The position numbers were made by a program, and so were the translations under genes. A DNA stretch of 64,000 bases from Candidatus Zipacnadia bacterium (GTDB lineage: Bacteria > Armatimonadota > Zipacnadia > Zipacnadales > UBA5352): contig JALGVA010000001.1 of the NCBI GenBank assembly GCA_029820295.1, positions 51,476 through 115,475 on the forward strand. Direction: 5' to 3'. Position 1 is the stretch's first letter, and each line of letters begins with the position of its first letter. Below are positions 16,779-60,273 of this stretch, in pieces. Under the pieces are notes generated by a model that saw only the letters and a program-made list of their open reading frames with translations, was not told the origin of the DNA and ran no database searches.

Positions 16779-16787
16779 CGGGTCACC

Positions 16788-28257: not shown

Positions 28258-31200
28258 TCAGCCCGCCGGCAGCACGACCGTGTTGTTGCCCTCGCAAAGC
28301 TCGGCCACCTCGCCGGCCGGATCGACGTGCACGGTGAACTGCCGCCCGCGCCGGTCGGCCGGCACCGTGAATTGCAGCTCCACCGTCCGCGGCACGCAGT
28401 CCAGCGGCGCCTCCAGCGGCCCGGCGGTCGCGGTCAGGTCGGGCCCGCCGTCATCGCCGCTGACCGTCACCGTGAACTCAGGCGCACTCCCGCCGCCCAC
28501 GTTGTGCACCACCACCGTGATCTCCCCGGCGTCCGCGGCGATCACCGTGTCTTCGGCGCAGATCGCCAGGTCGGGCCGCGCGTAGTAGTCCTCACCGTCG
28601 GCCGCGACCTGCTCCACCTGCAGCGCCACCATCCGCCCGACCGGCAGCTCCATCGCGATGGTCGAGCCCTTGGCCAGCTCAACTTGCTCCTCATGCGTGA
28701 CGCTGTCGGGGACGCCATCCTCGTCGGCGTCCGGGCCCGTGGTCACGGTGTACGTGCCCGGCTCGAGTCGCCAGAACTGCACCGCCCCGCGTTGGGGCTC
28801 ATCCGCGAAATTCCAGGCCATGAGCCGCAGACTGTGCCCGTCGCTCGCGAGCACCCACGCCGCGAACTCCGGCGAGAAGCCGCGCCAGGAGATGGCGTGC
28901 GTCGGGTAGATGAAGCTGCGGTAGCCCGGCTGCCCGCCCAGGTACATGCGATCGACCAGGTCCTTGGAGATGGCCACGCGGTCGGCCGACTGCTCGATCC
29001 ACGTATGCATCGGGAAGAGCAGCTCGATGCGCTCCCACGAGTCGCGCAGCGCCGCCAGCACGCGCTCGCGGTCACCGGTCAGCCGCCATGCCGCGTAGTC
29101 GATCTGCGTGCGCGGGTCGTTGCCCATCTGCGGGTTCAGGCTCGCGTAGCTCTGCTCGGCGGCCCTCTGCACGATCCAGTCGCGATCCGCCGACAGGTCG
29201 GTGCGCGCCGCCAGCTCCGGCAGCATCGGCGGGTTGACGGTCCGGCGCATCAGCCACAGGCGCTCAGGCAGCCAGTAGCGCTCGTCGCCGGTCCACTCGG
29301 CCAGCGCCAGGAACATCGTGGCGGAGCCGTAGCCGCGCAGATAGCTGGTGTGCCCGACCACCTCGCGGTCCTCGAAGCGCACCGCGTTCGGCAGCACCCT
29401 CTGCCCCGTGAAGGGCCCGTCCAGCTCGGCCAGCGCCTGCTCGACCAGGTCGAGCCAGGCGTCACCGTAGTCCTGCACGAGCCCGGTCGCATAGGGGTTG
29501 CGGCTCTGCCATCCGAGGATCAGCGCGGGGTGGAGCATGAGCGTGCTGGACAGGATGTCCCGATCATAGGGCGGCTCGGTGATTACCCGCGTGGCGCCGT
29601 AGAGCGTCGAGCGGAAGTGCCGGAAGCCGCCGGTGATGCCGGTGAGGCGCTCCCGCACGGTGCGGGTGGCGAGCATCAGGCGCTCGAGATACACCGGGTT
29701 GCCGTAGTACAGGTCGGCCTCGCGGCAGATGGCGTTGACGCCCTCCTCGTAGGCGTGCAGCGGGTCGGTCTGCCGGGCGTTGATGCCATCCTCCAGCTTG
29801 CCGGTGTCCCAGCAGAACTCGGCGATGCGCCGCACCGAGTCGGCGATGCGCCCGTCCGGGTCGCTGATGTTGGCCAGCGACACCCAGTCATTGATCAGGT
29901 CGGTGTCGTCGCCGTAGTTGTGCCCGAACTCCCCGTTGGGCGCCTGGCGGTGATCGATCCACCAGTAGACGAAGTCCAGGTAGCGGCGCAGCGCCGCCTG
30001 TTGGTAGACCGCCCACTCGGGCGCCCCCTCGGTGGCGGGCGGCTGCAGACCGGACCGGTCCACCGGCTCATCCGGGTGCGTCCAGATGTGCACGGCGCGC
30101 GCGTAGGGGTCGTCGGGGAAGCGCGTGTGCAGGTCCGTCAGCGCGCGATCCAGCTCGCGGAACACGCCCACGCGCTCGCCCAGGTCGGCCATCGACGTGC
30201 GCCCCCACGGCCTCGGCTCGGAGACGTCAATGAAGCGGTCCTTCACGAAGGCGAGCCGGTCGTGGCGGTACTGCTCGGCGAGCACCTCGGGGGACTCGAG
30301 CAGCAGCTCGAAGCGCGACTGGCGCTCGCCGCCGTCGAAGACCAGCTCGGCGTCCGCACCGGCCATGAGCCGCACCCACAGCGGCCGCCCGGCGGGAATG
30401 ACGGTGTCGGGCACGTCCAGCGTCAGGTCCAGGCGGCGGATGCCCGTCCAGTCGCCGGCGGTGCGCACCTCGAAGTCGGCGATCTGCCGTGTGGGGATCA
30501 ATGGGTCCGCGACGTAGGCCCACAGCACCGTGCCCGCGGGCAGGTCGCGGAAGTACAGCACGACGCGCAGCCCCCCCAGCGCCCGGTCCTGGTCGGCGGC
30601 GGGCAGCATGAAGTGCCGGAACTGCAGGGCCGGCAGCATGAAGCTGCGCGCGTCCGGCGCGGGCTGCGCCGAGCAATTCAGCGCCACGCGGTCATACGTC
30701 TCGTACTTGCTGAGCATGATGCCGCCGATCTCCGACGACCAGTCGCTCCACGGCTCGGCGCCGATCGGCCATGCCTCGGCGCGGCCGGGCAGGTCGCCGG
30801 CGTCCGCGCGGCCGGTCTCGTAGAAGCCGATCTCCCGGATCAGCGAGCGCGGCGCCTCCTCGCCGCCTTCCTCCGCGGGCGGCCGCGGTGCGTCGAAGAA
30901 GGTCATCTCAGTCTCGGTCATCGCCCCCTCGAAGCCGCGCGCGAACAGCGGCCCGTCGGACTCGATCGGCATCCACGCCTCGCCCTGCGGCTCGAAGATC
31001 TGCTCGCCGTGGTAGAGCTGCCCGCGCACCGGCCCGCAGATGCGCAGGTAGTCCCAGCGCGCATCCCGGTCGAGGCGCAGGATCAGCCCACCCTCGTCCT
31101 GGAACGAGTAGCCATGGTAGGTGAGCGGCCAGCGCGTCTCGCGGTCGCCATCGCTGACCTTCCAGGCCTGGGCGTAGATCGCACGCGCGTCCTCGAGGCC

Positions 31201-32106
31201 CGCCCGGCGCACCAGGAGCGTCTCATCGCCGGATGCAGGCTCGATGGTGAGCATCCCCGGGCATGTGGCCCACCCCAGGAACTCCGCGCGGTGGGCCGCG
31301 ATCTCGGGCGTGAACTGCGTCGGCAGCGCGGGCAGCTCGCCGGCGCCCTGGTAGACCGCGCGCACCTCCTCGTCAGTGAGCGCGCGCGAGAAGATGCGCA
31401 GCTCGTCGAAGTCGAAGGGCCGCTCGGTGCCGCCCCAGTGGTTCCAGCTCCCGATCATGATCCGGTCGGGCTCGAGGTGCTCGGTTTGCCAGGAGAGCGG
31501 CTCCTGCGTACGGGTGCGTTCGCCGTCACGATAGAGCCGGAAGCCCCGCGTCTCGTCCCAGGTGATGGCGAGGTGATACCACCTGTCGGCCTCCCACGCC
31601 CCCGCCTCCCAGTCATAGCTCGTGCCGAAGGGCCCGCCGATGAGCACGTCGCCGTAGCGTCCGCGCACTCCCAGGAGCAGCCCCGCACGCCCGGTCGGGA
31701 CGATCGAGAACAGGGAGTGATGGACCTCACCCGGCGGCATCGCCAGGCGCAGCCAGAAGGCGACCGTGCCGCGGCGCATGTTGATGTTGCCGTCGGCGCG
31801 GTAGCGGTGCGATTGCCCGGCGTCCAGGTGCAGCGCCTGACCGACTACGCCCTCGGTGCTCGTCCCGCGGTAGCCCGCAACGTCCTTGGTGATGCCGCGA
31901 TCGTACACCAGCGGGGAGAACGCCGCCGACCCGCGCGCCAGCTCGGCCTCCATGCCCGACGCGTAGTCCTCGCTCCAGCCGTCGTCGAAGCTCGCGTGCA
32001 GGATCTCCGCGGCGTCGGCAGGCGGCTCGATCACCAGCGGGTGGAAGTCCTGAGCCGCGGCGGGCAGGGACGCTGTCAGTGCGATGAGCATCAGCTGACT
32101 GCGCAT
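28258..32106 (-). CDS. secreted 1282-aa protein with N-terminal LamG/concanavalin-like domain and (alpha/alpha)-barrel-like glycoside hydrolase-like body
   Basis: Signal peptide MRSQLMLIALTASLPAAAQ; LamG-like block (AFWLRLAMPP...RWYHLAITWD...LRIFSRALTDEEV); strong AAGGAGG RBS 9 nt upstream. Confidence 0.5.
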   Translation of the reverse strand: MRSQLMLIALTASLPAAAQDFHPLVIEPPADAAEILHASFDDGWSEDYASGMEAELARGSAAFSPLVYDRGITKDVAGYRGTSTEGVVGQALHLDAGQSHRYRADGNINMRRGTVAFWLRLAMPPGEVHHSLFSIVPTGRAGLLLGVRGRYGDVLIGGPFGTSYDWEAGAWEADRWYHLAITWDETRGFRLYRDGERTRTQEPLSWQTEHLEPDRIMIGSWNHWGGTERPFDFDELRIFSRALTDEEVRAVYQGAGELPALPTQFTPEIAAHRAEFLGWATCPGMLTIEPASGDETLLVRRAGLEDARAIYAQAWKVSDGDRETRWPLTYHGYSFQDEGGLILRLDRDARWDYLRICGPVRGQLYHGEQIFEPQGEAWMPIESDGPLFARGFEGAMTETEMTFFDAPRPPAEEGGEEAPRSLIREIGFYETGRADAGDLPGRAEAWPIGAEPWSDWSSEIGGIMLSKYETYDRVALNCSAQPAPDARSFMLPALQFRHFMLPAADQDRALGGLRVVLYFRDLPAGTVLWAYVADPLIPTRQIADFEVRTAGDWTGIRRLDLTLDVPDTVIPAGRPLWVRLMAGADAELVFDGGERQSRFELLLESPEVLAEQYRHDRLAFVKDRFIDVSEPRPWGRTSMADLGERVGVFRELDRALTDLHTRFPDDPYARAVHIWTHPDEPVDRSGLQPPATEGAPEWAVYQQAALRRYLDFVYWWIDHRQAPNGEFGHNYGDDTDLINDWVSLANISDPDGRIADSVRRIAEFCWDTGKLEDGINARQTDPLHAYEEGVNAICREADLYYGNPVYLERLMLATRTVRERLTGITGGFRHFRSTLYGATRVITEPPYDRDILSSTLMLHPALILGWQSRNPYATGLVQDYGDAWLDLVEQALAELDGPFTGQRVLPNAVRFEDREVVGHTSYLRGYGSATMFLALAEWTGDERYWLPERLWLMRRTVNPPMLPELAARTDLSADRDWIVQRAAEQSYASLNPQMGNDPRTQIDYAAWRLTGDRERVLAALRDSWERIELLFPMHTWIEQSADRVAISKDLVDRMYLGGQPGYRSFIYPTHAISWRGFSPEFAAWVLASDGHSLRLMAWNFADEPQRGAVQFWRLEPGTYTVTTGPDADEDGVPDSVTHEEQVELAKGSTIAMELPVGRMVALQVEQVAADGEDYYARPDLAICAEDTVIAADAGEITVVVHNVGGGSAPEFTVTVSGDDGGPDLTATAGPLEAPLDCVPRTVELQFTVPADRRGRQFTVHVDPAGEVAELCEGNNTVVLPAG

Positions 32107-32157: not shown

Positions 32158-33285
32158 CTACGCCGACCGGAGCCGGTCAAGCAGGTAGCGGAAGTGGTCG
32201 TAGGGCACATCCTGCGGCACCGAGTGGTCCACGGCCGGGAAGTAGCGCCCCGCGCCCACCAGCCGCCGCACCTTCGCCACCTCCGCGTCGATGGCATCCC
32301 GCCCGGCGATCAGCGCCCGCTTGTCGATGTTGCCCGCCAGCACCACGCGCTCGCCGTACTCGCGCCTGAGCGCCTCCGCGTCCACACCCGCCGCCACCTC
32401 CAGCGGCGAGAAGCCGTTGATCCCGACCTCCAGCCACAGCGGGATCAGCTCGGAGATGTCGCCATCGCTGTCCACGAAGATCGTCTCGATCCCGTGTGAG
32501 CGCATCGCCTCGCACAACCGCACGTAGCGCGGCTGCAGGAACCGGCGGAACATCTCCGGCGACAGGAAGGCCCGGCCCTTGTAGGCGATGTCCTCGCCGA
32601 AGGAAGCGTAGTCGAAGGTGAACCCCTGCGCCAGATAGCGCATCGCCAGCTCGAGGAAGAACCACTCCAGGTACTCGAGCATCTCCTCGACCAGCGCCGG
32701 GTTGTCGTAGAACATGAGGCACAGGCCCTCGGTCCCGACCCAGCGCTGCAGCGTGTGCCCGAAGAAGCTCCCGGGCGCCAGGCCCATGGGCACGTCCCGC
32801 GCCTCCCACGACCGCCGCGCCGCCGCCGGGTCGGCCGGGTAGCGTCCGGGCGTCTCCGGGTCCAGCCGCTCACGCAGCCGCAGCCAGTCCTCTCTGCTCT
32901 TGATCGGGTAATCCAGCCACTGCGGCATCTTGGACCTGGTCTCGCGCTTGAACACCCGCTGGACGACCCCGAAGCCGTCGCGGAAGGTGCGCGTCTCCTC
33001 GTCTTCGGTCAGCGTCTCCTCCGGGAAGGGGGGCAGCAGCGAGTACGGGGCGCCGCCGGTCATGGCCACCGGCTGCAGACCGAAGACGGTGGCCAGGTCC
33101 GCGTCCGGCGGCAGGCCCTCGCCACGCCAGCGCTGCAGCGTCTCATCCATGAACCAGGCGTAGTTGAGATTGAGGGGCAGGAACATGTCGCCGCGCAGCT
33201 CGCCGCGAGCGATGGCGCGGAAGCGTTCGCGGTTCGTCACAGCGGGATCCCCTCCAGACGGAAGCGGCCGCTCGGGCCGCGTCAC
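32158..33285 (-). CDS. uroporphyrinogen decarboxylase (URO-D)-like family protein, paralogue A
   Basis: Overall URO-D/MtaA-like (beta/alpha)8 pattern (ERFRAIARGE...DRxP; FGEDIAYKGRAFLSPEMFRRFLQPRYVRLCEAMRSHGIETIFVDSDG...VVLAGNID). GTG start, no clear RBS. Lacks the H-x-C-G motif seen in paralogue B. Confidence 0.5.
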   Translation of the reverse strand: MTRPERPLPSGGDPAVTNRERFRAIARGELRGDMFLPLNLNYAWFMDETLQRWRGEGLPPDADLATVFGLQPVAMTGGAPYSLLPPFPEETLTEDEETRTFRDGFGVVQRVFKRETRSKMPQWLDYPIKSREDWLRLRERLDPETPGRYPADPAAARRSWEARDVPMGLAPGSFFGHTLQRWVGTEGLCLMFYDNPALVEEMLEYLEWFFLELAMRYLAQGFTFDYASFGEDIAYKGRAFLSPEMFRRFLQPRYVRLCEAMRSHGIETIFVDSDGDISELIPLWLEVGINGFSPLEVAAGVDAEALRREYGERVVLAGNIDKRALIAGRDAIDAEVAKVRRLVGAGRYFPAVDHSVPQDVPYDHFRYLLDRLRSA

Positions 33286-33449
33286 GCGGGCACGGGCGTC
33301 AGTTCTGGAAGCCGGGCCTCAACGCGTCCTGGTGGATGAAGCCGGTATCGGGATAGCTCTGCCACAGGGCCTTGCGCCTGCCGCCGGTGCGGTCGTAGTA
33401 CTCCTCGGTCGTCTCCCCGATGCACACCTCGATCAGGCGCTGATTGGCG

Positions 33450-33833
33450 TCAGACCAGCATGAGCGTGCCCTTGCGGTAGTACTCGAAGTACCGGGCGCG
33501 CTCGACGTTGTCCACCTGGGTCTCGCGCACGCTGCCCGGGTTCTCGTGCGCGCCGCGGGCCTTGCCCAGCAGCGCGTGCACCTGGTCGGGGCTCATGCCC
33601 GGCCGCAGTTGGTTGATCTGAGCGGCGCCGATGTCCGGCGTCTGTGTGGTGTGCTGCATGACGTGGCGGAAGCCCCAGTAGGCGGCGCCGCCGAAGATGC
33701 CGATGATGAGCGTCCTGATGAAGGACCAGATGCCCGCCAGGGCGTCGCTGCGCGCGCGCACCCGCGGGACACTGCGCCTGTGCCGACCGGCCGATGACGA
33801 GGGCGCTCTCGAGCCGCCGGGCCTGCGCGTCAT
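33450..33833 (-). CDS. small membrane-anchored BamE/SmpA-OmlA-like domain protein
   Basis: Start MTRRPGG at 33833 with strong GGAAGGAGGAG RBS (the ORF-track start 33971 is upstream of this RBS); TM helix GIWSFIRTLIIGIFGGAAYWGF; motif GMSPDQVHALLGKARG typical of SmpA/OmlA (BamE) domains. Confidence 0.5.
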   Translation of the reverse strand: MTRRPGGSRAPSSSAGRHRRSVPRVRARSDALAGIWSFIRTLIIGIFGGAAYWGFRHVMQHTTQTPDIGAAQINQLRPGMSPDQVHALLGKARGAHENPGSVRETQVDNVERARYFEYYRKGTLMLV

Positions 33834-33957
33834 CGCGATCTCCTCCTTCCCCCGCGCCCGAATGGAACCCCGGGGGCCCGTTGCCGCGATGTGGCGATCC
33901 ATCACAGCCCCCGCCGCACGGAGTATACGCCTTCTGCGGCCGGCACTCCACTGCGGG

Positions 33958-35100
33958 TCAGGAGAGGGCAACCGGAGCGCCGCCGGCCTCGCGGCAGCAG
34001 TCCACCACGAATCGCATCTGCTCGACCGTCCGGTGCGGGTAGCCGGCCACGCTGAGGATGAAGTGATCCCACGGTCGGGCCTCGTCGATCATCCGCTTGA
34101 TGCTCGCACGCACCGCCGCCGGGTCATCGATGGGACCGGCAAGCTGCTGCACCCCGGCCACGATGGTGATTCGATCTCCCAGCACCCGCCGACCCTCGCC
34201 CACGGTCACATCGCCGACGGGCGGGATCGTGAAGGCGTGGACGCCATCCATGCACGTCCGCCGATACAGCGGCAGCAGATCGCGGATCAGCCCGCAGGAG
34301 TGATGGAAGTAGAACTTGCCCGCGTCGTGGGCCGCACGGGCGCGCTCATTGGTGAGGTCGATGTTGCACGCCTCGAACATCGCCGGCGAGATGGCGGTGG
34401 TCGAGGTGTCATCGACGCTGACCACCACATCGATCCCGGACTGCGCGCCGATGGCCAGGCGCTGCCGGTAGTTGCGCTCCATGACCGCGAACAGATCGCG
34501 CAGCGCGTCCCGGGCGTCCGCCCACAGATAGGCCAGCGTCGCGACACCGGAGTAAACCCGGAACATCATCCCCAGCGGCGTGCCCGGCATCGATCCCAGC
34601 AGCAGGCCGTCATCCCCGATCAGCTCGCATCGCCGTTGCGTGCGCTCGACGCCCTCCGGGTCCGGCTCTATGACCTCATCCTCGAAGATCGCGGCCAGGA
34701 TCGGCAGGTCGTCCGCGCTCTTGATCGGGTGCTCGGTCCAGTTGCTGGAGACCGCCCCGGAGGCGTCGCGGCAGACCCGGATGGTCTCGTGCAGCTCGCC
34801 TGCGGGAGTGCGCCACACGCGCGTGCGCTCCACGCCCTCCACGCGCTCCTCGACCGTCACCTCGCGCCGGGTGACGCGCACCGGCATCCCGTGCCAGTCC
34901 ATGATGTCGAGGCCGAGGTAACGGGACAGCGTCACCGTTGCCTCGCCACCCCAGCGCACCTCGCCGAGCGCCTCCGCCAGCTCCGGGTCCATCCCCTCGC
35001 GGCTCGGCTGGTTGTACGGGTCGCAGTGGCCTGTGAGCGGCAGCCACTCGGGTATCTCATGGCGCAGAACCCGCAGCAGATTCTCGCGTGGTGTCGTCAT
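33958..35100 (-). CDS. uroporphyrinogen decarboxylase (URO-D)/MtaA-like family protein, paralogue B
   Basis: URO-D-like pattern (ISPAMFEACNIDLTNERARAAHDAGKFYFHHSCGLIRDLLPLY...ITIVAGVQ); contains H-x-C-G (HHSCG) as in Zn-dependent MtaA/CmuA-type alkyltransferases. Confidence 0.5.
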   Translation of the reverse strand: MTTPRENLLRVLRHEIPEWLPLTGHCDPYNQPSREGMDPELAEALGEVRWGGEATVTLSRYLGLDIMDWHGMPVRVTRREVTVEERVEGVERTRVWRTPAGELHETIRVCRDASGAVSSNWTEHPIKSADDLPILAAIFEDEVIEPDPEGVERTQRRCELIGDDGLLLGSMPGTPLGMMFRVYSGVATLAYLWADARDALRDLFAVMERNYRQRLAIGAQSGIDVVVSVDDTSTTAISPAMFEACNIDLTNERARAAHDAGKFYFHHSCGLIRDLLPLYRRTCMDGVHAFTIPPVGDVTVGEGRRVLGDRITIVAGVQQLAGPIDDPAAVRASIKRMIDEARPWDHFILSVAGYPHRTVEQMRFVVDCCREAGGAPVALS

Positions 35101-35184
35101 CGCTCTCGTTGCGTCGAGTGCCTCGTGACCCCGCGACAGCCGTCGGATGGCGCACCGGGGCGTGCATCGCCCCGCACGCTGTCG

Positions 35185-37605
35185 TCAGCGCACCCGCGAC
35201 ACCAGCCACACGCGCTTCCAGATGCCCCCGCCGCCACTGCGGTCCTCCACTCGGACCGTGAAGCGCTGCTTGTCCATGTCCGGATCGAGGAAGGGATCGA
35301 TGCGGATCTCGAAGGGCGTCGCCCAGTCGTCGGGCTCCTCGAACAGGTGCTCCCCGGCGAGCTGCCCGTTCACGTACACCCGGCACGACTCATCCACGGC
35401 GCCGAAGTACAGGTAGATCTCCCGGCCCTCGAACTCCGTCGGCATCGACTGCGCGGTCGCGTACCAACCGATGCCATCGTAGTCCTTGAGCTGCGCGCGC
35501 AGCTCGTCCGAGGGGTAGGTCTCCCCGTCGTACGGGTTCTCCCAGTGGAAGTCGGTGCGCATCAGCTCCCAGTCGGTCATCTGCTCAAGGGTCAGCTCCT
35601 GCCATCTCTGCTCCAGACCCACTTCATCGGGGTCGAGCTTGAAGCGCCACGCCAGCGCCGTCGGCACCCACGGGAGCGGGTAGTCCTTGAGCCGCTCGGC
35701 GGTCTTCAGGCCGGTGATGTCCCCGAAGCGCGTCTCGTTGGCGAACAGGCCCAGCCAGGAGAACGGCAGGTCGTCGCGATATTCGGTGCGGAACTCAAGC
35801 AGCGCCCGGGAGTGCTCGAACTTCGCGATGCCCCCGGTGGCGATGGCCGCGAAGGTCAGGCGGGCGTGCCGGTTGGCCAGGATGAGCTGGTCGAGCTGCG
35901 CGCGCTGGCTCGGCTGCAGCTCGTGGGCGGCGGCCTCCTGCAGGATCGCGTCGGTGCGGTCGAAGTCCTCCGCGCGGTAGTAGTCGCCCAGCGACCACAT
36001 CAGCCCGCGCGCGAAGTTGTGGTACTTGCCTCGGGTGACGATCTCATCCAGGTCCGGGAGCAGCCGCCCCTCCCACAGCTCCTCGCGCCAGTAGCGGAAG
36101 TAGCGCTTCACGTCCTCCGCCGCCGCGCCGAACCCCGCGCAGTAGTGGTCCTCCCAGTACTCGAACGGCTTCTCCGGGTCGGACATGGCCCTGGCGAGGA
36201 TATAGTCGGCCATGCCGCACACCGGCCACATGCCGGTCAGCGAGTCGTAGTCGGCGACCACGGCCCCGTGGCGTATGGCCAGTTGCAGCACCTCGAACAT
36301 CTGCCGCTCCGCGCCGATGGGGATGGCGGTGGAGTGGTAGTACAGCGGCAGGTTGGGCCGGTGGAAGAGCTTCGTCGCCCCCGCCGCGGACCAGCCGCCG
36401 TAGAGCTGCTCCAGCTCCTCCAGGTCCACGGTCGTGGGCACGATCCCGACGACCACGTTCGGCTCGACCCGCTCGCGGCGCGGCGGCTGCTCCGCCGCGT
36501 TGTAGGCGTACATGACCGCCCCGGCCTCGGGGTCGTGCTCCCGCGCCAGGCGCGCCACCGCGTTGGTCAGATGCACGTAGCGGTCGCTGAGGTGATCGCC
36601 GAACTCCTCTCCTGCGCGGGGCACGTCGAGCGCCATGCACTGCTCGCAGCGGCAGAAGCCCCAGTCGAGATCGTTCTCGCAGACGTTGATCCACGGGCTG
36701 CGCATGCCGCCCTCGACCCAGTCGGCCACGATCTGCTCGGCCACCGCCGGGTTGCTCACGCACAGCTTGACCGTCTGCCGCTCCTGGTCGGTGAAGGCCG
36801 GCGTGGCGCTCTCCGGCCGGGCCAGCGGCTCCGGACCGCGATAGCCCCATACGTTGAGCGCGAAATACTCAGGATGGGTCTCACCGTACCTGTCCCACCA
36901 GTCGGTGAAGGCATGGCCGTAGCTGATCGACGAGTGGCCGCCCATGCGCATCCGCCGGCGCCAGTCGAGCACATCATTGGCGTACTGATCGTGCTCCTCA
37001 GGGGTGCGGGCGAAGCTCCAGAACTCGTCGATGTACTCCTTGCGCTGGGGGTACCGGCCCACGCGCGCCCCCACCCGGATGCCCCGCTGCTCCAGCACCG
37101 GCGCCCAACTGAAGGCGCCCGGCGTGAGGGTGAGCGGGCTCTGCTGCTCGTACGTGATGCCTCGATCGCCCGGCATGAGCCAGCGCACGCCGAGCTGATC
37201 CTCGAGGAAGGCATACACCGCGAACTGCGAGCCCAGGTGGCGCTCGTCATCGCCGAAGAGCCAGGTGGCCTCGGGCGTGATGGCCCAGCGCGCCTCCTCC
37301 GGCGCCGGCGGGCGGCTGTCACCCGGGGCCGGAGTGCCGATGTAGAAGCGGTAGCCGCCGGCCTCGTCGGCGGCGATGATCGGCACCTCCACCCCGGCTA
37401 TGAGCGCGAGGTGCTTCTGCAGCTCCTCGGCGGCAACGGTGTGGACTCGCTCGGGGGCCTCCGGCAGCACGATGGCGCACTCCTGCGGATCGACCGTGAT
37501 CTGCGGCTGCGCCACGGCCAACCCGGAAGCGCAGGCCAGTGCAGCCGCCACTGCGACAGTGACGAGTCGAGCTGCGCATGGTGCGCGAGCGTTCCTGATG
37601 CTCAT
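35185..37605 (-). CDS. secreted glycoside hydrolase-like protein (DUF4838-like) with C-terminal galactose-binding-like jelly-roll domain
   Basis: Start MSIRNARAPCAARLVTVAVAAALACASGLAVA|QP at 37605 (signal peptide; ORF-track start 37710 is 35 residues upstream); C-terminal block EFEGREIYLYFGAVDESCRVYVNGQLAGEH resembles the GH2 N-terminal sugar-binding jelly roll. Confidence 0.5.
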   Translation of the reverse strand: MSIRNARAPCAARLVTVAVAAALACASGLAVAQPQITVDPQECAIVLPEAPERVHTVAAEELQKHLALIAGVEVPIIAADEAGGYRFYIGTPAPGDSRPPAPEEARWAITPEATWLFGDDERHLGSQFAVYAFLEDQLGVRWLMPGDRGITYEQQSPLTLTPGAFSWAPVLEQRGIRVGARVGRYPQRKEYIDEFWSFARTPEEHDQYANDVLDWRRRMRMGGHSSISYGHAFTDWWDRYGETHPEYFALNVWGYRGPEPLARPESATPAFTDQERQTVKLCVSNPAVAEQIVADWVEGGMRSPWINVCENDLDWGFCRCEQCMALDVPRAGEEFGDHLSDRYVHLTNAVARLAREHDPEAGAVMYAYNAAEQPPRRERVEPNVVVGIVPTTVDLEELEQLYGGWSAAGATKLFHRPNLPLYYHSTAIPIGAERQMFEVLQLAIRHGAVVADYDSLTGMWPVCGMADYILARAMSDPEKPFEYWEDHYCAGFGAAAEDVKRYFRYWREELWEGRLLPDLDEIVTRGKYHNFARGLMWSLGDYYRAEDFDRTDAILQEAAAHELQPSQRAQLDQLILANRHARLTFAAIATGGIAKFEHSRALLEFRTEYRDDLPFSWLGLFANETRFGDITGLKTAERLKDYPLPWVPTALAWRFKLDPDEVGLEQRWQELTLEQMTDWELMRTDFHWENPYDGETYPSDELRAQLKDYDGIGWYATAQSMPTEFEGREIYLYFGAVDESCRVYVNGQLAGEHLFEEPDDWATPFEIRIDPFLDPDMDKQRFTVRVEDRSGGGGIWKRVWLVSRVR

Positions 37606-37657
37606 CTTCCGCTCCCTGCCCTGGCTCTTTCGTAGTGGCGACGCGGCCTCGTGGCAC

Positions 37658-38707
37658 TCAACCGGCAAACGTGCCCAGACCCAGTCCCCGCAGGTCGGCC
37701 AGTTGCCCATTCTCCTCGGCCTCGTAGAGCTTCCAGATGACCTGCAGCCCCTCCAGCGAGCCGACCGCGTCGGTCAGCGGCTTGCGGCCGGTGCGGATAC
37801 ACTCGATGAAGTGCGCCATCTCGACCTCAGTCGGCTTGGCCTGCTGCACCTCCATCAGCGTGTCCACGGCCTGCACCGGGGGCCGGCCGGGCTCGTGTGC
37901 CTCCTGGCGATGGTGCACGATAAGCTTGCCCTCGCTGATCGCGGCCTCGATCATCCCGCCCGTGCAGTGGGCGTGGAAGGAGTACTTAAGCCGGCTGCCG
38001 CGCGCACCCCACGTGCCCATATGGTAACCCAGGACTCCGCCCTCGAACTCGATGGTGACATTGCTGGTGCCCTCGCGCTCCATCCACGGGGTGCCGGTGT
38101 TGGTGCCGAAATGCGTCCCGCACACCGGCCGGCCCAGCATCCACAGCAGCAGGTCGATGTAGTGGCAGCCGTGGCTGAAGAGCTGGCCGCCACCGAGCGT
38201 CGCCGCGCTGCTCCCCCAGTGGTCGGGCGGGTACTGCGTGAGCTGCTCGGTCCACATGGAGAGCTGGAAGACGTCGCCGTAGGTCCGGTCGTCGATCAGC
38301 TCCTTCATCTTCACCACCAGCGGGTGGAAGCGCATGCAGTAGGCCACCATGAGCACGCGGTCGGCCTCCCGCGCCGCGCGGATCATGTCGAGGCACTCCT
38401 GCTCGCTGTTGGCCATGGGCTTCTCCACCAGCACGTGCTTGCCCGCGGCCAGGCAGTCGAGCGTCGCGGAGTGGTGCAGATGATGCGGCAGCACCAGCAG
38501 CGCCGCGTCGATCTCATCCAGCACGTCGTGGTAGTCGGTGGCCACGATCGGCTCGCCGGGCAGCAGGTCCGCGACCGCCTGCGCGCGCTCCTCGAGGACA
38601 TCCACCACGGCTCGCACCTCGACCTGATCGAGGATCATATCGAAACGACCGGCATGGCTCCGCGCCATGCCCCCGCAGCCGACGATGGCGATGCGTACCT
38701 TGTCCAT
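37658..38707 (-). CDS. Gfo/Idh/MocA family NAD(P)-dependent oxidoreductase
   Basis: Start MDKVRIAIVGCGGMARSH (Rossmann GxGxxG) at 38707 with GGGAG RBS; EKP motif (VLVEKPMANS). The ORF-track 94-residue N-terminal extension is Arg/Pro-rich. Confidence 0.8.
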   Translation of the reverse strand: MDKVRIAIVGCGGMARSHAGRFDMILDQVEVRAVVDVLEERAQAVADLLPGEPIVATDYHDVLDEIDAALLVLPHHLHHSATLDCLAAGKHVLVEKPMANSEQECLDMIRAAREADRVLMVAYCMRFHPLVVKMKELIDDRTYGDVFQLSMWTEQLTQYPPDHWGSSAATLGGGQLFSHGCHYIDLLLWMLGRPVCGTHFGTNTGTPWMEREGTSNVTIEFEGGVLGYHMGTWGARGSRLKYSFHAHCTGGMIEAAISEGKLIVHHRQEAHEPGRPPVQAVDTLMEVQQAKPTEVEMAHFIECIRTGRKPLTDAVGSLEGLQVIWKLYEAEENGQLADLRGLGLGTFAG

Positions 38708-38960
38708 GGCCCTACTCCCGCGAGTTAGTTGTGCTGCTGCTGTCGGCGCCGGCCGTCGCGATCCGCCCCACAGTCCGCGGACCGGCGACCACATACGAGG
38801 CCAATTCGCCGGATTCCGGGCCATACCTGCGACGTGCGGCGCCGCGAGCGGGAAGGAAGGTCGCCTCGCCCGCGGCGAATACACTGAGCGTGCGACGGCC
38901 GGACGCCGCGATCTCGATGCGGCGCCGCCCAACCATACGGGCCGCGAGGGACGGCGCGCC

Positions 38961-40979
38961 ATGATCCGGACAACTCCGGTGATCACCATGCTGCTGCTGA
39001 CGGCAATCGCGACCGCCGCCGGGGAACCGCCCGCGACCTACACCAATCCCGTGTGGGCCGGGGACTTCCCCGACCCGTTCATCATCCGCCACGGCGGCAT
39101 GTTCTACGCCTATGCCACCCAGAACTCGCCCGACGGCTTCCAGGTGATGCAGTCGCCGGACCTGGTGCACTGGACCCATCGTGGGGTGTGCTACCGGCCG
39201 CCGTGGTCGGACGGGCACTACTGGGCGCCGGAGGTCATCGAGCATGATGGTCTGTTCCACATGACCTACTCGGCCACAAACCCCGACACCGATCGCCACG
39301 ACATCGGGGTGGCGATCGCCGCCGACCCGCTTGGGCCCTTCGAGCATCGCGCCATCCTCGTTCGGGGAGACGACAGCAACGGCGGTGTCATCGACTCCAC
39401 GGTCTTCTTCGACGCCGACGGCACGCCCTACCTGCTCTACTCCGAGGAGTCGCCGCGCTGCATCGTCCTGCGGCCCATGGCCGCCGACCTGCTCGGAGTC
39501 GGCGACGAGCGCGTCGAACTCATCCGTCCGGACCGCCCGTGGGAGCGCGGGGTGACCGAGGCGCCGACCGTGCTCCTGCGCAACGGCATCTACCACCTCT
39601 TCTTCTCGGTGGGCTGGTACCAGTCGGACAAGCTCGATGCCTGCTACGCGGTCTGCCATGCCACTGCGCCCTCGATCCGCGGGCCGTGGACGAAGTCGCC
39701 CGGCGCGCTGCTCGAGACGCGGGTGGGGCGGGTCTACGGCCCAGGGCACCAGTGCGTCATCGCCCTGCCCGGTGGCGAGGTGTGGATGGCCTACCATGGC
39801 TGGGACGATCAGGACGAGCCGCGCTACGGCTCGAATCCGCTGGGGCGCACCATGCGCATCGACCGGCTGCGCTGGGAGGGCGACACGCCGATCGTCGAAG
39901 GACCGACCACCACGCCCCGGCCGGCTCCGGTGTCGGCCGCGGGCCCGTCGGCGGACGCGACTGCAGCGGACGGCGGCGATGCCATCACGCTGACCGGCTG
40001 GGGCATCGACACCAGGGACCTGGACGCCTTCATGGCGCAGGCCGCGGCGGTCGGCTTCGATGCGCTCATCTCGTGGTCAACCGATCCCGAGGTCCTCGTG
40101 GGGCTGGTCGAGGCGGGGGCCCGGCACCACATCGGCATCTTCTCCTGCATCTCGCCCATGGGGGGCCTGGCGAAGCTGTGGGCAGAGCGCTATCCCGATC
40201 GTCCCGTCCCGTGGCAGGTCATGACCCCCGACGAGGAGGCCGCCCTGAGCTTCATCACGGCCGGGCGCAACCGCTACATCATCCCCTACCAGTTCGGAGG
40301 GGAGCCGGTGATGACCAACGAGGTCCTCACCACCCGCATCATCTGCTTCAGCAACGAGGAGGCGCGGGAGTTGCTCGAGTCGCAGATCGATGCCATCGCG
40401 GCAGTGCCGGGCCTCGAGGGCCTGGCCTTCGACGGCTTCGGCTACCAGAACTACCAATGCTGCCACTGCGATCGCTGCCGGGCCATGCTGGCCGAGTACA
40501 CACAGGCGCATCCCGACCTGCCGGAGGACGAGGCCAACGTCGTCTGCTTCCGCGATGCCCTGGTCGGCTACATCAACTCCCTGGCCGACTATGCGCGCTC
40601 CCGGCGCCCGGACATCAGAACCGCCATCCACATCTGGCCGGTGTTCGCCCCCGACCCGCTCTACGGCAACCGGCTGGACGTGGACTACTGCGGTCAGACC
40701 GCGGCCTGGTATATGCCCTGGCCCGAGGAGAAGATCGCCGAGTACAGCCGGATCATCTCGGATGGCGCGCGCGACTACTTCCCACGCCAGCAGGGCGTGG
40801 GCATGATCGGCTACTACGACCGCCCCGGGCAGTTCCCGGTCAAGGACGCGGCGCGCGTGGACATGGAACTCAGGACGATGATCGACAACGGCGTGCGCCA
40901 CATCCAGGTCTGCAGCGCCGTCGATGTGGTCAGGAACCCGGAGATCGCCGAGGTCTTCACCAGCCGCTGCGAACGGTGA
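38961..40979 (+). CDS. secreted glycoside hydrolase family 43-like protein with C-terminal domain of unknown function
   Basis: Start MIRTTPVITMLLLTAIATAAG (signal peptide) at 38961; GH43 beta-propeller N-terminal motifs DFPDPFIIRHGGMFYAYAT...WAPEV; about 350-aa Cys-rich C-terminal region (YQCCHCDRCRAML) unassigned. Confidence 0.7.
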   Translation: MIRTTPVITMLLLTAIATAAGEPPATYTNPVWAGDFPDPFIIRHGGMFYAYATQNSPDGFQVMQSPDLVHWTHRGVCYRPPWSDGHYWAPEVIEHDGLFHMTYSATNPDTDRHDIGVAIAADPLGPFEHRAILVRGDDSNGGVIDSTVFFDADGTPYLLYSEESPRCIVLRPMAADLLGVGDERVELIRPDRPWERGVTEAPTVLLRNGIYHLFFSVGWYQSDKLDACYAVCHATAPSIRGPWTKSPGALLETRVGRVYGPGHQCVIALPGGEVWMAYHGWDDQDEPRYGSNPLGRTMRIDRLRWEGDTPIVEGPTTTPRPAPVSAAGPSADATAADGGDAITLTGWGIDTRDLDAFMAQAAAVGFDALISWSTDPEVLVGLVEAGARHHIGIFSCISPMGGLAKLWAERYPDRPVPWQVMTPDEEAALSFITAGRNRYIIPYQFGGEPVMTNEVLTTRIICFSNEEARELLESQIDAIAAVPGLEGLAFDGFGYQNYQCCHCDRCRAMLAEYTQAHPDLPEDEANVVCFRDALVGYINSLADYARSRRPDIRTAIHIWPVFAPDPLYGNRLDVDYCGQTAAWYMPWPEEKIAEYSRIISDGARDYFPRQQGVGMIGYYDRPGQFPVKDAARVDMELRTMIDNGVRHIQVCSAVDVVRNPEIAEVFTSRCER

Positions 40980-41046
40980 GCGCGGGGTCGTATCGCGACG
41001 TCTCAGAGCCGCCCGCCAGGACGCCCCGCCCGACAGGGAGACCGCC

Positions 41047-42282
41047 ATGCCCGACGCACGTGACCTGGACGTGCTGCGCGAACTGGCCACACGAGCCGCC
41101 GGGATAGCCGCCCTGCCCGTGCAGGAGGAGAAGCGCCGGCTGTGGCGCGCGCTGAACCGTCTCGAGCCGGTGCGCCCCATGGTCATGATCGACCAGGTGT
41201 GCTGGAACGAGATGGATGTCAACGGTGAGCTGGCCCTGCGATGCGAGGACCCTGAGTGCCGGGGCTACGAGACCGTGCTGCGGCGCATGCTCTACCAGTG
41301 GGACCATTTCCCGGTGGATATGGTGGTCGAGCCCTTCCTGCGCGTGCCCATGGCGATCCGCAACACCGGCTTCGGCGTGACCTGCCGGGAGGAGGTCGCG
41401 ATCACCGACCCCACCAACCTGGTGGTCGGCCACCACTACATCAACCAGTTCCAGACCGAGGCGGACCTCGAGAAGATCCAGATCCCGCGGATCAGCCACG
41501 ACGAGGCCGAGACCGAGCGTCGCCTCGCCTTCGCCCACGAGGTCTTCGACGGGATCATCGAGGTGCGGGCGTGGGGCCTGAGCCCGGCGATGTCGATGTG
41601 GGACCCCATCAGCACGTGGATGGGTGTCGAGGGCGTGCTGTGGGCGCTGGCCGACCGGCCGGAGTACATGCACCGGCTGATCGGCAGGATGGCCGAGGGC
41701 TATCACCGCATGCTCGACCAGCTCGAGGAGCAGGGCCTGCTGTGCGGCCCCCAGAGCGTGATCCACTGTACGGGCGCGTGGGTGGACGAGCTGCCCGCGC
41801 CCGGCTACGACCCGCAACGACCACGCTGCCGGGACATCTGGACCATGGGGCTGGCCCAGATGTTCTCGACCGTATCGCCGCGCATGTTCCGGGAGTTCGA
41901 GGTGGACTACCTCGCGCCCCTCTGCGAGCGCTTTGGCCTGGTCTACTACGGCTGCTGTGATCCGCTTGATCGGAAGATGGACGAGGTGCGCATGATCCCC
42001 AACGTGCGCAAGGTCTCCATGAGCGCGTGGACCGACCAGGAGCTGGGCGCGAGCGAGATCGGCGGGGACTTCGTGTTCTCGCGTAAGCCCAACCCGGCGT
42101 CGCTGGTAACCGATGTCTTCCACGCCGAGGCCGTGCGCGAAGACCTGCAGACCACCAGGGAGATCTGCGCGCGCCACGGCTGCCCGCTGGAGCTGATCCT
42201 CAAGGACATCAGCACCGTGCGCTACGAGCCCGAGCGGCTGACCCGCTGGGGCGAGGTCGCCATGGAGGTCGCCGCAGGATAG
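41047..42282 (+). CDS. hypothetical protein, possibly a third URO-D-like (beta/alpha)8 family member
   Basis: Start MPDARDLDVLREL with GGGAGA RBS; C-terminal half (VSPRMFREFEVDYLAPLCERFGLVYYGCCDP...KVSMSAWTD) follows the URO-D family pattern only loosely. Confidence 0.35.
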   Translation: MPDARDLDVLRELATRAAGIAALPVQEEKRRLWRALNRLEPVRPMVMIDQVCWNEMDVNGELALRCEDPECRGYETVLRRMLYQWDHFPVDMVVEPFLRVPMAIRNTGFGVTCREEVAITDPTNLVVGHHYINQFQTEADLEKIQIPRISHDEAETERRLAFAHEVFDGIIEVRAWGLSPAMSMWDPISTWMGVEGVLWALADRPEYMHRLIGRMAEGYHRMLDQLEEQGLLCGPQSVIHCTGAWVDELPAPGYDPQRPRCRDIWTMGLAQMFSTVSPRMFREFEVDYLAPLCERFGLVYYGCCDPLDRKMDEVRMIPNVRKVSMSAWTDQELGASEIGGDFVFSRKPNPASLVTDVFHAEAVREDLQTTREICARHGCPLELILKDISTVRYEPERLTRWGEVAMEVAAG

Positions 42283-48873: not shown

Positions 48874-49063
48874 CCCAGGCCCTCTCCTCTGACCCGCCAT
48901 CTCGCGTGGCTGCAGGCTTCTCCCCGGCCGACCGTGCACCTCCAACGCCCGTCGTGCGCGGGGCACGATCCGCGCGCCGAGGCGTCCCTGCTCGAAGGCC
49001 CCGTCGGCCATCGCGTGGAAAGGGCCCGCCACTGCGTGCAGGCCGACTGAGGAGGTCGGGGCG

Positions 49064-59312: not shown

Positions 59313-59689
59313 AGGCGCGAGGGCCGGGTGGTGTGCCACGTGACCGCGAGCAGGGCCCCGACGTAGCAGGCGCCCTCGGCCGGGCCCGAGATGTGCGCGC
59401 CGGCGAAGAGCGTTGCCACGACGCCGAGGCGGGTGCCCGGCCCGAACGTCACGCGGTTGGCCCCGCGGACGGTCAGCCGGCCGGTCGATGGCCACTTCGG
59501 CGGACGCGCTCTGGCCCGGGACGCACTCGACGGCCGTGACGCGCCACCTGCCTGCGGGGGCGTTGAGCGCCGGGACGAAGGTCCACGCGTCCTCGCCGCG
59601 CGGGAGGTAGACGATCTCCGCGAGATACTCCGGCGCCGAGCCATCCGGGGGCGTCATCTGCACGTGAACCGTCTGCGGGGCTGGCCGCA

Positions 59690-60214: not shown

Positions 60215-60273
60215 ACGCCGCATTCTGAGAGAGCCGCCTCACTTCACACCGAAAACGGGACATATCCGAAGTC

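Follow-up and report, generated by a model that had tools for sequence, protein, structure and literature searches.

We find that three proteins encoded beside secreted glycoside-hydrolase-like proteins in a Candidatus Zipacnadia bacterium (Armatimonadota), here called UroA, UroB and the third protein, belong, as cytoplasmic proteins with a non-haem role, to the superfamily that comprises UroD, corrinoid methyltransferases and MetE, and that they represent three separate families, each large, conserved and uncharacterised. We tentatively propose that they transfer methyl groups from polar methyl ethers derived from sugars; alkyl (methyl) transfer, the dominant chemistry of the UroD superfamily outside HemE, is the most likely one.

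The locus and its genes

The window that was analysed is a stretch of 64,000 nt (GCA_029820295.1, contig JALGVA010000001.1, positions 51,476-115,475 of the forward strand), and all coordinates below are positions in it. The genes concerned are as follows.

37658..38707, minus strand: cytoplasmic NAD(P)-dependent oxidoreductase of the Gfo/Idh/MocA type, heading the co-directional run; 349 aa if read from ATG 38707
35185..37605, minus strand: secreted 806-aa protein combining DUF4838 with a sugar-binding domain of the GH2_N type
33958..35100, minus strand: UroB, 380 aa, cytoplasmic, UroD superfamily, with HHSCG
33450..33833, minus strand: small protein with a BamE-like motif, about 127 aa, with a basic N-terminus and one hydrophobic helix; frame chosen by GC3
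32158..33240, minus strand: UroA, 360 aa, cytoplasmic, UroD superfamily, with D-S-D
28258..32106, minus strand: secreted Laminin_G_3 and CARDB protein, 1282 aa (PF13385 61.8 bits, PF07705 28.5 bits)
25659..28208, minus strand: secreted 849-aa protein, weakly matching a GH42-like TIM barrel, ending the co-directional run
38708..38960, no strand: intergenic region from which the Gfo-led run and the pair of GH43 enzyme and third protein diverge, delimited by the gene starts
38961..40979, plus strand: secreted GH43 enzyme with a C-terminal DUF4838-like region, 672 aa
41047..42282, plus strand: third protein, 411 aa, cytoplasmic, UroD fold, with motif YYGCC(D/E)P

The original prediction described the neighbours as secreted glycoside-hydrolase-like proteins together with an oxidoreductase and a GH43 gene, which is borne out by the Pfam scores: PF01408 at 90.4 bits plus C-terminal domains for the oxidoreductase, PF16126 at 84 bits and PF02837 at 49 bits for the 806-aa protein, PF02449 at 26.8 bits (cut-off 21) for the 849-aa protein, and PF04616 at 181.7 bits with a weak PF16126 match for the GH43 enzyme. 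The oxidoreductase scores far under all NCBIfam equivalog cut-offs, and the match of the 806-aa protein to solved GH2 structures is limited to its C-terminal sugar-binding domain. Signal-peptide-like N-termini are present in the large proteins, that is, the 806-aa protein (MSIRNARAP...ALACASGLAVAQP), the 1282-aa and 849-aa proteins and the GH43 enzyme (MIRTTPVITMLLL), and are absent from UroA, UroB, the third protein and the oxidoreductase. The start of the oxidoreductase and the length of the GH43 enzyme agree with gene calls of 349 and 672 aa in a near-identical sibling contig of 70.8 kb (L162). Giant LamG or GH123-type proteins are found repeatedly beside relatives of UroA and UroB.

It was also suggested that the minus-strand genes form a 13 kb operon. 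The genes are indeed co-directional with gaps of 49-209 nt, and it is from these two features that an operon may be inferred; neither promoter nor terminator signals were detected, the divergent intergenic region showing no sigma-70-like site, and the 64 kb window gave no cobalamin riboswitch or other Rfam match. The BamE-like gene had been placed in the frame 33433..33951, which has the wrong GC3 pattern, and must be redrawn: the right frame ends at 33450 and most likely begins at ATG 33833. Against the BamE model PF04355 the small protein gives 19.7 bits over 21 residues, under the cut-off of 23.2, and its orthologue in L093, where the gene order UroB-small-UroA recurs, gives 24.5 bits, above the cut-off. 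The start of UroA is most likely GTG 33240, not 33285, as suggested by a GGAGGGG ribosome-binding site and by homologues of 360 aa.

Three protein families and the haem reading

That UroA and UroB are two URO-D paralogues is confirmed, since both pass the PF01208 gathering cut-off of 23.9 bits (55.6 and 30.1 bits, respectively, each match being limited to the model's C-terminal half) and since they match each other by BLASTP (22% identity, E 2e-7) and, as family profiles, by hhalign over the full length (96.8%, E 2.7e-10). The motifs reported for them, HHSCG in UroB and VDSDG in UroA, are both present and are placed opposite each other by hhalign, with H267-x-C269 of UroB facing D257-x-D259 of UroA. 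The third protein, which had been put forward as a possible further member, fails PF01208 membership because it gives no match even at E<=10, but its place in the superfamily is upheld by its fold, a (beta/alpha)8 barrel of the UroD/MtaA type, and by profile comparison, which shows it to be homologous to URO-D families; its C303-C304 lies roughly opposite the H-x-C of UroB in a non-significant alignment. The third family is large and has no Pfam model, and in 9 loci the UroB homologue is immediately preceded by a relative of this family (c2). At least two UroD-superfamily genes are present in 16 of the 63 larger UroA loci.

The AF2 model of UroA (pLDDT 94.6) has as its best solved folds HemE and MtaA (4ay7), with TM 0.55-0.64 and 14-18% identity in a Foldseek PDB library older than the CdmB structure, and it contains a beta-rich insertion at residues 59-110. 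Among the UroA relatives (85 proteins, 36-82% identical to UroA) the candidate active-site residues are nearly universally conserved: the 16 residues W38, R133, E216, D217, K221, Y239, D257, D259, G260, W269, E281, D306, K307, R308, D338 and H339 form a set that is complete in all but 7 relatives, where the exceptions are the single-site changes K221H/N, R308K/I/H, W269I/M or D306N. In the model E216/D217, D257/D259, E281, D306 and D338/H339 lie at or just beyond the C-terminal ends of successive predicted beta-strands, which would be the catalytic face of the TIM barrel. For UroB, the best 120 homologues, from Planctomycetota and Lentisphaerae, are every one at least 71% identical, and the invariant residues include H266, H267, C269, H288 and H346.

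It might be argued that one paralogue is the organism's HemE, a reading that we regard as most improbable and as effectively refuted. Although UroA and UroB match PF01208, the HemE equivalog model TIGR01464 gives UroA 21.7 bits against a cut-off of 302.95, more than 10-fold under it, and gives no match for UroB or the third protein. When human UROD (its sequence checked against 1R3Q before alignment) is aligned to UroA by hhalign, only UROD 181-361 is aligned; because only this C-terminal half aligns, Arg37, Arg41, Asp86 and Tyr164 of UROD are without a UroA counterpart, and there is likewise no equivalent of the RQAGR motif. The likeness to UROD thus lies in the fold, the Pfam family and the C-terminal GN(I/L)D, where UroA has GNIDKR against GNLDP in UROD, and in H339 of UroA, which matches UROD His339. 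The UroB profile gives no significant alignment to UROD. A search of the GC3-supported and six-frame ORFs of the 64 kb window found neither hem genes nor a B12-binding protein, in agreement with what had been stated of the vicinity. A CobA/HemD fusion, which would favour a haem link, adjoins one relative only (L011) among about 85, with a radical-SAM/SPASM gene also beside this homologue, and the 85 relatives stand in carbohydrate or corrinoid contexts. The non-haem role originally suggested is therefore upheld by the HemE score, the missing N-terminal residues, the lack of hem genes nearby and the recurring link with carbohydrate genes.

Carbohydrate context in other genomes

The carbohydrate context of the window recurs elsewhere. 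The commonest co-located family is Gfo, with a member no more than 10 kb away in 15 of the 85 UroA loci; in L001/L002, L018, L036 and L057 it is the adjoining gene and runs in the same direction. Tight arrangements are seen in L001 (ABC sugar transporter, 1108-aa protein, Gfo, followed after 1 nt by the UroA-like gene), in L010 (a 4-nt overlap of the UroA-like gene with a PfkB kinase gene) and in L164 (SSF transporter, GH123/CBM9 protein, URO-D, URO-D, AraC regulator, with gaps of 23 and 1 nt behind the GH123/CBM9 gene). UroB neighbourhoods are rich in GH123_N, LamG, sulfatase, GH1 and GH127 genes, and of 104 UroB neighbours about a quarter have a CAZyme or sulfatase domain, which is several-fold over the usual genome fraction. 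Near members of the third family there are GH141-like, GH3, fucosidase and fucose isomerase genes. Some Dehalococcoidia UroA homologues adjoin aromatic-amino-acid biosynthesis genes.

Two further readings bear on this context. According to the first, which we consider rather unlikely, the UroA-type proteins, perhaps all three, are corrinoid-independent divalent-metal sugar or uronate enzymes paired with Gfo/Idh/MocA, the UroD barrel having been recruited to carbohydrate chemistry and the corrinoid pairing in Chloroflexota, described below, being a side branch. The candidate reactions would be decarboxylation of a beta-keto uronate arising from C4 oxidation, beta-elimination of methanol or of another 4-O-substituent from a uronate, and isomerisation of a keto-deoxy sugar acid. 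Such a role would accord with the frequency of Gfo, which also heads the co-directional run of the window, and with a set of uronate and sugar-acid neighbours: UxaA-, KduD- or UxaC-like genes at about 9 of the 85 UroA loci (a genuine UxaC of 291 bits in L001, UxaA-like genes in 5 loci and KduD-like genes in 3), a CE15 glucuronoyl-esterase fusion in L014, lyases of the heparinase II/III type both in the window and in L163, where two 3-keto-disaccharide-hydrolase-domain genes also come after the UroA homologue, and, in L165, a group of cupin, PfkB, IclR and SDR genes. The UxaA-, KduD- and UxaC-like genes and the CE15 fusion are equally part of the sugar link on which methyl transfer draws. The absence of a corrinoid protein from the window and from UroA's own clade points the same way. 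Moreover, the conserved site is rich in carboxylates (E216, D217, D257, D259, E281, D306 and D338), with H339 and K/R residues, and to such a D-x-D/E/D-H site sugar chemistry with a hard divalent metal is as well suited as methyl transfer, which weakens the case for the latter. However, the hexuronate genes occur near only those few UroA loci, with none in the window and only single KduD- and ExuT-like matches near UroB loci; we found no earlier example of such reactions among UroD-superfamily enzymes; and the 16 residues are also present in members translationally coupled to corrinoid proteins.

In the second reading, which seems to us quite unlikely, the three proteins have roles independent of the hydrolases, such as general thiol alkylation, MetE-like or cofactor-related chemistry, and their siting is explained by the CAZyme-packed genomes of Armatimonadota and PVC bacteria; chance co-location is inflated because these genomes are CAZyme-dense. 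Across phyla, UroB and the third protein keep 69-80% identity while their neighbours differ between loci, a pattern more typical of core than of glycan-specific enzymes, so a general housekeeping role would fit too, and the L011 and Dehalococcoidia neighbourhoods are also in line with it. MetE and MetE-like proteins belong, distantly, to the same barrel superfamily, and the MetE zinc site is made of H-x-C, E and C at the C-terminal ends of barrel strands. The operon-like spacing in the window, L001, L010 and L164 argues against independent roles, as does the share of CAZyme and sulfatase domains among the UroB neighbours.

The corrinoid link and the proposed pathway

Assignment to the MtaA/MtbA/CmuA type is rejected by the NCBIfam scores, which lie at 15-28 bits against cut-offs of 235-600 (UroA: TIGR01463 24.0 vs 235, MtaA 19.0 vs 400, MtbA 15.1 vs 600), with UroB and the third protein giving no match to these models; for HemE and MtaA the equivalog scores fall short of the cut-offs by a factor of 10-20. 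From the TIGR01463 match coordinates, the D-x-D of UroA falls near profile positions 240-242, which we take to be those of MtaA His240/Cys242. The strand that bears H-x-C in UroB, D-x-D in UroA and C-C in the third protein is presumably the zinc-ligand strand of MtaA-type enzymes; a direct alignment of these motifs onto the MtaA zinc ligands was not obtained. The invariant H-x-C of UroB would then lie on the strand that carries His240/Cys242 in MtaA, which with MtbA and MtsA makes up the methylcobamide:coenzyme M methyltransferases (MT II, 4ay7). The D-x-D of UroA and the C-C of the third protein at this strand, the absence of a corrinoid neighbour from all 69 UroB loci and the lack of coenzyme M metabolism in the host bacteria set the three proteins apart from these enzymes.

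The corrinoid O-, S- and halide-demethylases belong to the UroD superfamily (PMC10418091). In 12 UroA-family loci, all from one clade of Chloroflexota, a gene for a B12-binding corrinoid protein (PF02310 and PF02607, about 215 aa) lies immediately upstream on the same strand, separated by 6-24 nt or a short overlap where coordinates are listed; L078 has the order UroA-like, corrinoid protein, H-x-D UroD paralogue, MFS transporter. The coupled UroA-family members retain the 16 conserved residues, which argues for one shared corrinoid-involving chemistry. Note that the 12 loci may represent one ancestral arrangement that was inherited. The suggested (de)methylation of a sugar-derived substrate gains support from these Chloroflexota loci and none from the window, about 11 loci of UroA's Armatimonadota/Planctomycetota clade and the 69 UroB loci, where no corrinoid protein was found.

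Among known systems, the corrinoid methyltransferases I (the phenyl-methyl-ether O-demethylases OdmB/VdmB/MtvB and the chloromethane enzyme CdmB) share with UroA the UroD-type (beta/alpha)8 barrel and, in Chloroflexota, the translational coupling to a corrinoid protein. CdmB has a UroD-like barrel with extra beta-rich extensions between the first strands, as seen also in the UroA model, and CdmB and the Moorella enzyme contain no zinc, just as UroA has no Cys-based zinc site (PMC13222342). By contrast, the CdmB cavity is aromatic and hydrophobic (PMC13222342) while the conserved residues of UroA are charged or polar, the context here is glycan degradation instead of methylotrophy or acetogenesis, and general Pfam scans of the window ORFs found no RamA-type activase or pterin-type MT II domain. 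A search of PDB sequences with UroA at E<=1 returned no solved MT I, and OdmB/VdmB were compared by description only.

Based on our preferred reading, methyl transfer, the neighbouring secreted glycoside-hydrolase-like proteins would attack the glycan, and small sugar-derived products would be released and imported, on which UroA, UroB and the third protein would act inside the cell. Polar O-methyl ethers, for instance those of sugars or uronates, would be demethylated by a UroA-type enzyme with a corrinoid as methyl acceptor; the zinc-thiolate-type alkyl-transfer partners would be UroB and the third protein, given their Cys/His motifs; and the demethylated sugar would go on to oxidation by Gfo/Idh/MocA. 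For the Zipacnadia host we infer that methyl transfer takes place, that a sugar is the substrate, that there is a metal site and what part UroB and the third protein play. We found no described precedent in the literature for cleavage of an alkyl (sugar) methyl ether by cob(I)alamin. A likeness in function, hypothetical for our three proteins, is offered by the cytochrome P450 6-O-methyl-D-galactose O-demethylases, which are encoded in glycan-utilisation loci and take off a methyl ether that blocks sugar catabolism, the role we propose here, and which differ in their unrelated fold and O2-dependent oxidative mechanism (PMC6292453).

An undescribed step in glycan catabolism, as originally suggested, is thus no more than plausible: the non-haem role and the Chloroflexota corrinoid link speak for it, the absence of corrinoid proteins from the window, UroA's own clade and the UroB loci does not, and decarboxylation of uronic sugars is a serious competing reading. 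Going further, the three types could together constitute an O2-independent demethylation system for sugar or uronate methyl ethers, working by methyl transfer or by metal-assisted elimination, which we put forward as an unlikely but specific conjecture. This system would be corrinoid-linked in Chloroflexota and would use a trans-encoded or other acceptor in Armatimonadota and PVC bacteria, with 4-O-methyl-glucuronate and O-methyl-fucose, -galactose or -xylose as candidate substrates. If this is true, it would mean a new glycan-catabolism step involving three families in at least 8 bacterial phyla, one of the families being without a Pfam model.

Gene map of the cluster

It is noted that, because most mechanical ORFs are spurious at the G+C content of the window (about 70%), the true frames were picked by third-position GC. 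With these frames, the genes surrounding the three UroD-fold proteins (UroA, UroB and the third protein) are as follows.

37658-38707, minus strand: Gfo/Idh/MocA oxidoreductase (Gfo), in the co-directional run
35185-37605, minus strand: secreted DUF4838 + GH2_N protein, in the co-directional run
33958-35100, minus strand: UroB, in the co-directional run
33450-33833, minus strand: small membrane-anchored protein, in the co-directional run
32158-33240, minus strand: UroA, in the co-directional run
28258-32106, minus strand: secreted 1282-aa Laminin_G_3/CARDB protein, in the co-directional run
25659-28208, minus strand: secreted 849-aa protein with a weak GH42 match, in the co-directional run
38961-40979, plus strand: secreted GH43, directed oppositely to the minus-strand run
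41047-42282, plus strand: the 411-aa third protein, in the same direction as GH43

The minus-strand run from Gfo to the GH42-like gene has intergenic gaps of 49-209 nt, and a 253-nt intergenic region parts it from the oppositely directed GH43 and third-protein genes. Signal-peptide-like N-termini are present on the large proteins and absent from UroA, UroB, the third protein and Gfo. For the small gene, the frame proposed in the original prediction was wrong, with GC3 favouring the frame that ends at 33450; the mechanical ORF at 33433..33951 (minus strand), having a GC3 of 0.58 and an Arg/Pro/Gly-rich translation, is in the wrong frame and was rejected. The label of this protein as BamE-like is weak in the window, at 19.7 bits against a cut-off of 23.2, while its orthologue passes with 24.5 bits.

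Elsewhere, too, the window is related to glycans, with heparinase II/III-like, GH42/GH2-like, GH141-like beta-helix and GH123/CBM9-like proteins. On the minus strand at 12286-18620 are encoded a sugar-binding SBP, a 1087-aa fucose-pyrophosphorylase/GHMP-kinase protein (FKP-like bifunctional fucokinase/GDP-fucose pyrophosphorylase) and a 610-aa protein in which a SAM-methyltransferase domain is fused to a GT2 glycosyltransferase, possibly forming a module of fucose salvage and methylated-glycan biosynthesis 14 kb from the UroD cluster. The 64-kb window contains no hem genes, B12-binding protein, riboswitch or tRNA, and no genes matching the E. coli hexuronate-pathway queries UxaC, UxaA, KduD and KdgK. 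Rfam, tRNA and promoter/terminator scans of the UroD-cluster region gave no matches, and the DUF4838 and LamG giant proteins yielded, in PDB sequence searches, no pointer to the target glycan.

Armatimonadota MAGs are the source of the closest relatives, and a 70.8 kb contig of a JGI metagenome (L162) is 99.6-99.9% identical to the window. Its UroA orthologue, for which public gene calls give a 209-aa fragment, contains a run of N at L162:1847-1853 (corresponding to window 32843-32904); this run is a scaffold/assembly gap, and a truncated pseudogene was thus rejected. Note also three further regions: 842-3419 (minus strand), where three genes in tandem code for small proteins that have DUF1559 (SBP_bac_10) and, at the N-terminus, a prepilin-type methylation motif; 47038-52450, just past the glycan genes, with two neighbouring divergent large proteins with RyR domains, one also having TrkA_N; and 59400-62100, of lower G+C (about 0.66), where no ORF has the usual third-position GC bias of the genome and the sole long ORF is 60274-61413 (379 aa).

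Superfamily membership and conserved residues

UroA and UroB belong to URO-D as predicted, with 55.6 and 30.1 bits against the Pfam cut-off of 23.9, through their C-terminal halves only, and are distant paralogues of each other (hhalign 96.8%). The structure model of UroA (pLDDT 94.6) has as top solved matches HemE structures and the MtaA structure 4ay7 (TM 0.55-0.64, identity 14-18%). The third protein has no match in Pfam, NCBIfam or PDB sequences; the profile of its diverse family matches the UroA profile (95.4%, E 2e-8), and PF01208 picks up 11 of its 81 diverse homologues at E<=0.01. Because the family profile and the homologues reach the superfamily in this way, the 'two to three' UroD-type proteins proposed originally become three.

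A role as HemE is effectively excluded for all three proteins. UroA reaches 21.7 bits with the HemE equivalog (cut-off 303), 19 bits with MtaA (cut-off 400), 15 bits with MtbA (cut-off 600) and 24 bits with the mtaA_cmuA model (cut-off 235), so that it lies 10-40 times under the NCBIfam cut-offs; UroB and the third protein have no match to these models. When the human UROD sequence, identical to 1R3Q, was aligned to the family profiles, residues 181-361 were the only part aligning to UroA, with UroA H339 at His339, GNIDKR at GNLDP and the D-S-D-G strand at A262-K-D-G, while Arg37, Arg41, Asp86 and Tyr164 have no UroA counterpart in the alignment; the UroB profile gave no significant alignment to UROD. 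The HemE identity was rejected on these scores and on the missing counterparts of the N-terminal UROD residues. Among about 85 loci, the only tetrapyrrole-related neighbourhood is on an Armatimonadia contig (L011:2886-5701), where a CobA/HemD fusion (TP_methylase + HEM4) and a radical-SAM/SPASM gene are followed by a UroA homologue of 67% identity.

For UroA, 1563 homologues were detected, which in species-representative genomes are from MAGs only (Armatimonadia, Planctomycetota, Chloroflexota, Omnitrophota, Aerophobetes, Latescibacterota, Victivallaceae, Spirochaetes and KSB1). Sixteen residues (W38, R133, E216, D217, K221, Y239, D257, D259, G260, W269, E281, D306, K307, R308, D338 and H339) are unchanged in all but seven of 85 family members of 36-82% identity, the seven having single-site changes at K221, W269, D306 or R308. 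Since E216/D217, D257/D259, E281, D306 and D338/H339 lie at or just beyond the C-terminal ends of successive predicted strands, these positions would, going by the model, be the catalytic face of the barrel.

The best 120 matches of UroB are all at least 71% identical despite spanning Planctomycetota, Lentisphaerae and others, with H266, H267, C269, H288 and H346, among others, invariant. The best 120 of the 4896 matches of the third protein, which come from Armatimonadota, Planctomycetota, Chloroflexota and Hydrogenedentes, have at least 69% identity; this family, with 2867 representatives at the 50% identity level, has the hallmark YYGCC(D/E)P together with E75, D91, R321, K347 and K386. That UroB and the third protein are so extremely conserved would fit a housekeeping role with the co-location being by chance, which we nevertheless regard as improbable, the operon-like embedding of the genes speaking against it. 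In related paralogues of the fetched loci the same strand carries H-x-C, H-x-D, H-x-H, D-x-D or C-C, which looks like a radiation at a putative metal site; PDB sequence searches with UroB, its profile and an H-x-C paralogue (from locus L012) gave nothing useful for comparing H-x-C with the MtaA zinc ligands.

Genomic context and the proposed chemistry

Genes were called in 80 UroA-family loci and the neighbours clustered. The commonest partner is Gfo/Idh/MocA (15 loci), followed by a B12-binding corrinoid protein of about 215 aa (13 loci), SDR epimerase/dehydratases (11), formyltransferases (8) and UxaA-like dehydratases (5). In 12 of its 13 loci the corrinoid protein is immediately upstream on the same strand, with a gap of 6-24 nt or a short overlap where coordinates are listed; in L078 the order is UroA-like gene, corrinoid protein, H-x-D paralogue and MFS transporter. 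This translational coupling to corrinoid proteins, in members keeping the conserved UroA residues, is the strongest functional clue, and because of it we favour methyl transfer. Outside HemE the superfamily chemistry is alkyl transfer, as in corrinoid O-, S- and halide-demethylases, MtaA-type enzymes, MetE and epoxyalkane:CoM transferase (PMC10418091). The recently solved CdmB, a methyltransferase of the MT I type, has a UroD-like barrel that lacks zinc and is extended between its first strands (PMC13222342), and the UroA model likewise has a beta-rich insertion (residues 59-110). It is thus proposed, tentatively and at somewhat less than even chances, that UroA would take a methyl group from a polar methyl ether, probably sugar-derived, and that UroB and the third protein would be alkyl-transfer enzymes of the Cys/His type.

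Against methyl transfer, a corrinoid protein is found neither in the window nor in UroA's clade. In a neighbour-joining tree all corrinoid-adjacent members fall within one Chloroflexota clade, near to but separate from UroA's Armatimonadota/Planctomycetota clade, which has none, and the corrinoid signal may go back to one ancestral arrangement. Among the matches of the general Pfam scans there is no activase or pterin-type MT II domain, and the literature gave no precedent for a corrinoid-dependent cleavage of methyl ethers on sugars.

Within UroA's own clade, L001 has a sugar ABC transporter, then a 1108-aa protein, then Gfo, which ends 1 nt ahead of the UroA-like gene, with UxaC nearby; in L010 a PfkB kinase overlaps the UroA-like gene by 4 nt; L163 combines two genes for 3-keto-disaccharide-hydrolase domains with a sulfatase and a heparinase-like lyase; and in L164 two tandem URO-D genes stand between an SSF transporter and GH123/CBM9 protein on one side and an AraC regulator on the other. 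Further neighbours in this clade are a CE15 glucuronoyl-esterase fusion, an SBP and a DegT aminotransferase. Of the 63 larger UroA loci, 16 hold more than one UroD-superfamily gene. The main rival, which we consider somewhat less likely than methyl transfer, is a corrinoid-free, metal-dependent sugar or uronate enzyme partnered with the Gfo dehydrogenase and catalysing beta-keto uronate decarboxylation, 4-O-substituent elimination or isomerisation. Both the carboxylate-rich site and the neighbouring Gfo and uronate genes agree with it, but only about 9 of the 85 UroA loci have hexuronate genes close by and the window has none, so that the hexuronate link is kept as a lead only. In five Dehalococcoidia loci (L049, L056, L070, L077 and L082), the order is formyltransferase (Formyl_trans_N + C), UroA-family gene and SDR epimerase/dehydratase; the outer genes resemble a split ArnA (UDP-glucuronate decarboxylase + formyltransferase), which suggests a nucleotide-sugar context for some family members.

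None of the 69 UroB loci has a corrinoid neighbour. In these loci GH123_N/LamG giants, sulfatases, GH1, GH127 and DUF4838 abound, as do two neighbour families. The first (c1, about 470 aa, e.g. L007:1169-2587) directly adjoins UroB homologues in 15 loci (including L006/L007, L097, L100, L105, L116, L125, L139, L143-L145, L148 and L149), has three members matching a neutral/alkaline ceramidase N-terminal domain (best E 3.9e-11) and has no homologue in the window; together with the recurrent GH123-type neighbours, it hints at glycolipid or amide-linked substrates. The second (c2, about 360 aa, no Pfam match, e.g. L097:3434-4522) is directly upstream of UroB homologues in 9 metagenomic loci (including L097, L106, L123, L124, L132, L139, L144 and L145); it is distantly related to the third protein of the window (hhalign 95.3%, E 2.1e-8), with Y-H-L-D-G at the position of Y-Y-G-C-C. 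The third-family loci contain GH141-like beta-helix proteins, a GDSL esterase, GH3, fucosidase, fucose isomerase and another URO-D.

Significance for glycan degradation

Sugar methyl ethers, present in xylan, pectin RG-II, porphyran and many algal and bacterial glycans, obstruct normal sugar catabolism. The sole described sugar demethylase that we found is an O2-dependent cytochrome P450 for 6-O-methyl-galactose (PMC6292453). Already known are the superfamily itself and the NCBI label 'uroporphyrinogen decarboxylase family protein' on such proteins, and family annotations are at best this label or 'hypothetical'. Our search of the literature for links of URO-D/corrinoid methyltransferases to xylan, methylated sugars, glycoside hydrolases or polysaccharide utilisation turned up no account of such loci, nor a description of three distinct, strongly conserved subfamilies recurring in glycan-degradation loci, of the conserved UroA residue set with D-x-D where UroB has H-x-C, of the split of the UroA family between corrinoid context (Chloroflexota) and Gfo/sugar genes (other phyla), or of a large 411-aa UroD-fold family lacking a Pfam or NCBIfam model.

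The results point to UroA, UroB and the third protein as conserved, abundant families in which no member has been characterised and whose genes lie in loci for glycan degradation in uncultured Armatimonadota, Planctomycetota, Chloroflexota and other phyla. Should the demethylase idea prove mistaken, a conserved-residue set and concrete candidates for biochemistry are still gained, and the 411-aa family is seen to be covered by no Pfam or NCBIfam profile. Finally, we note that in metabolic reconstructions from MAGs these genes should not be read as haem biosynthesis.
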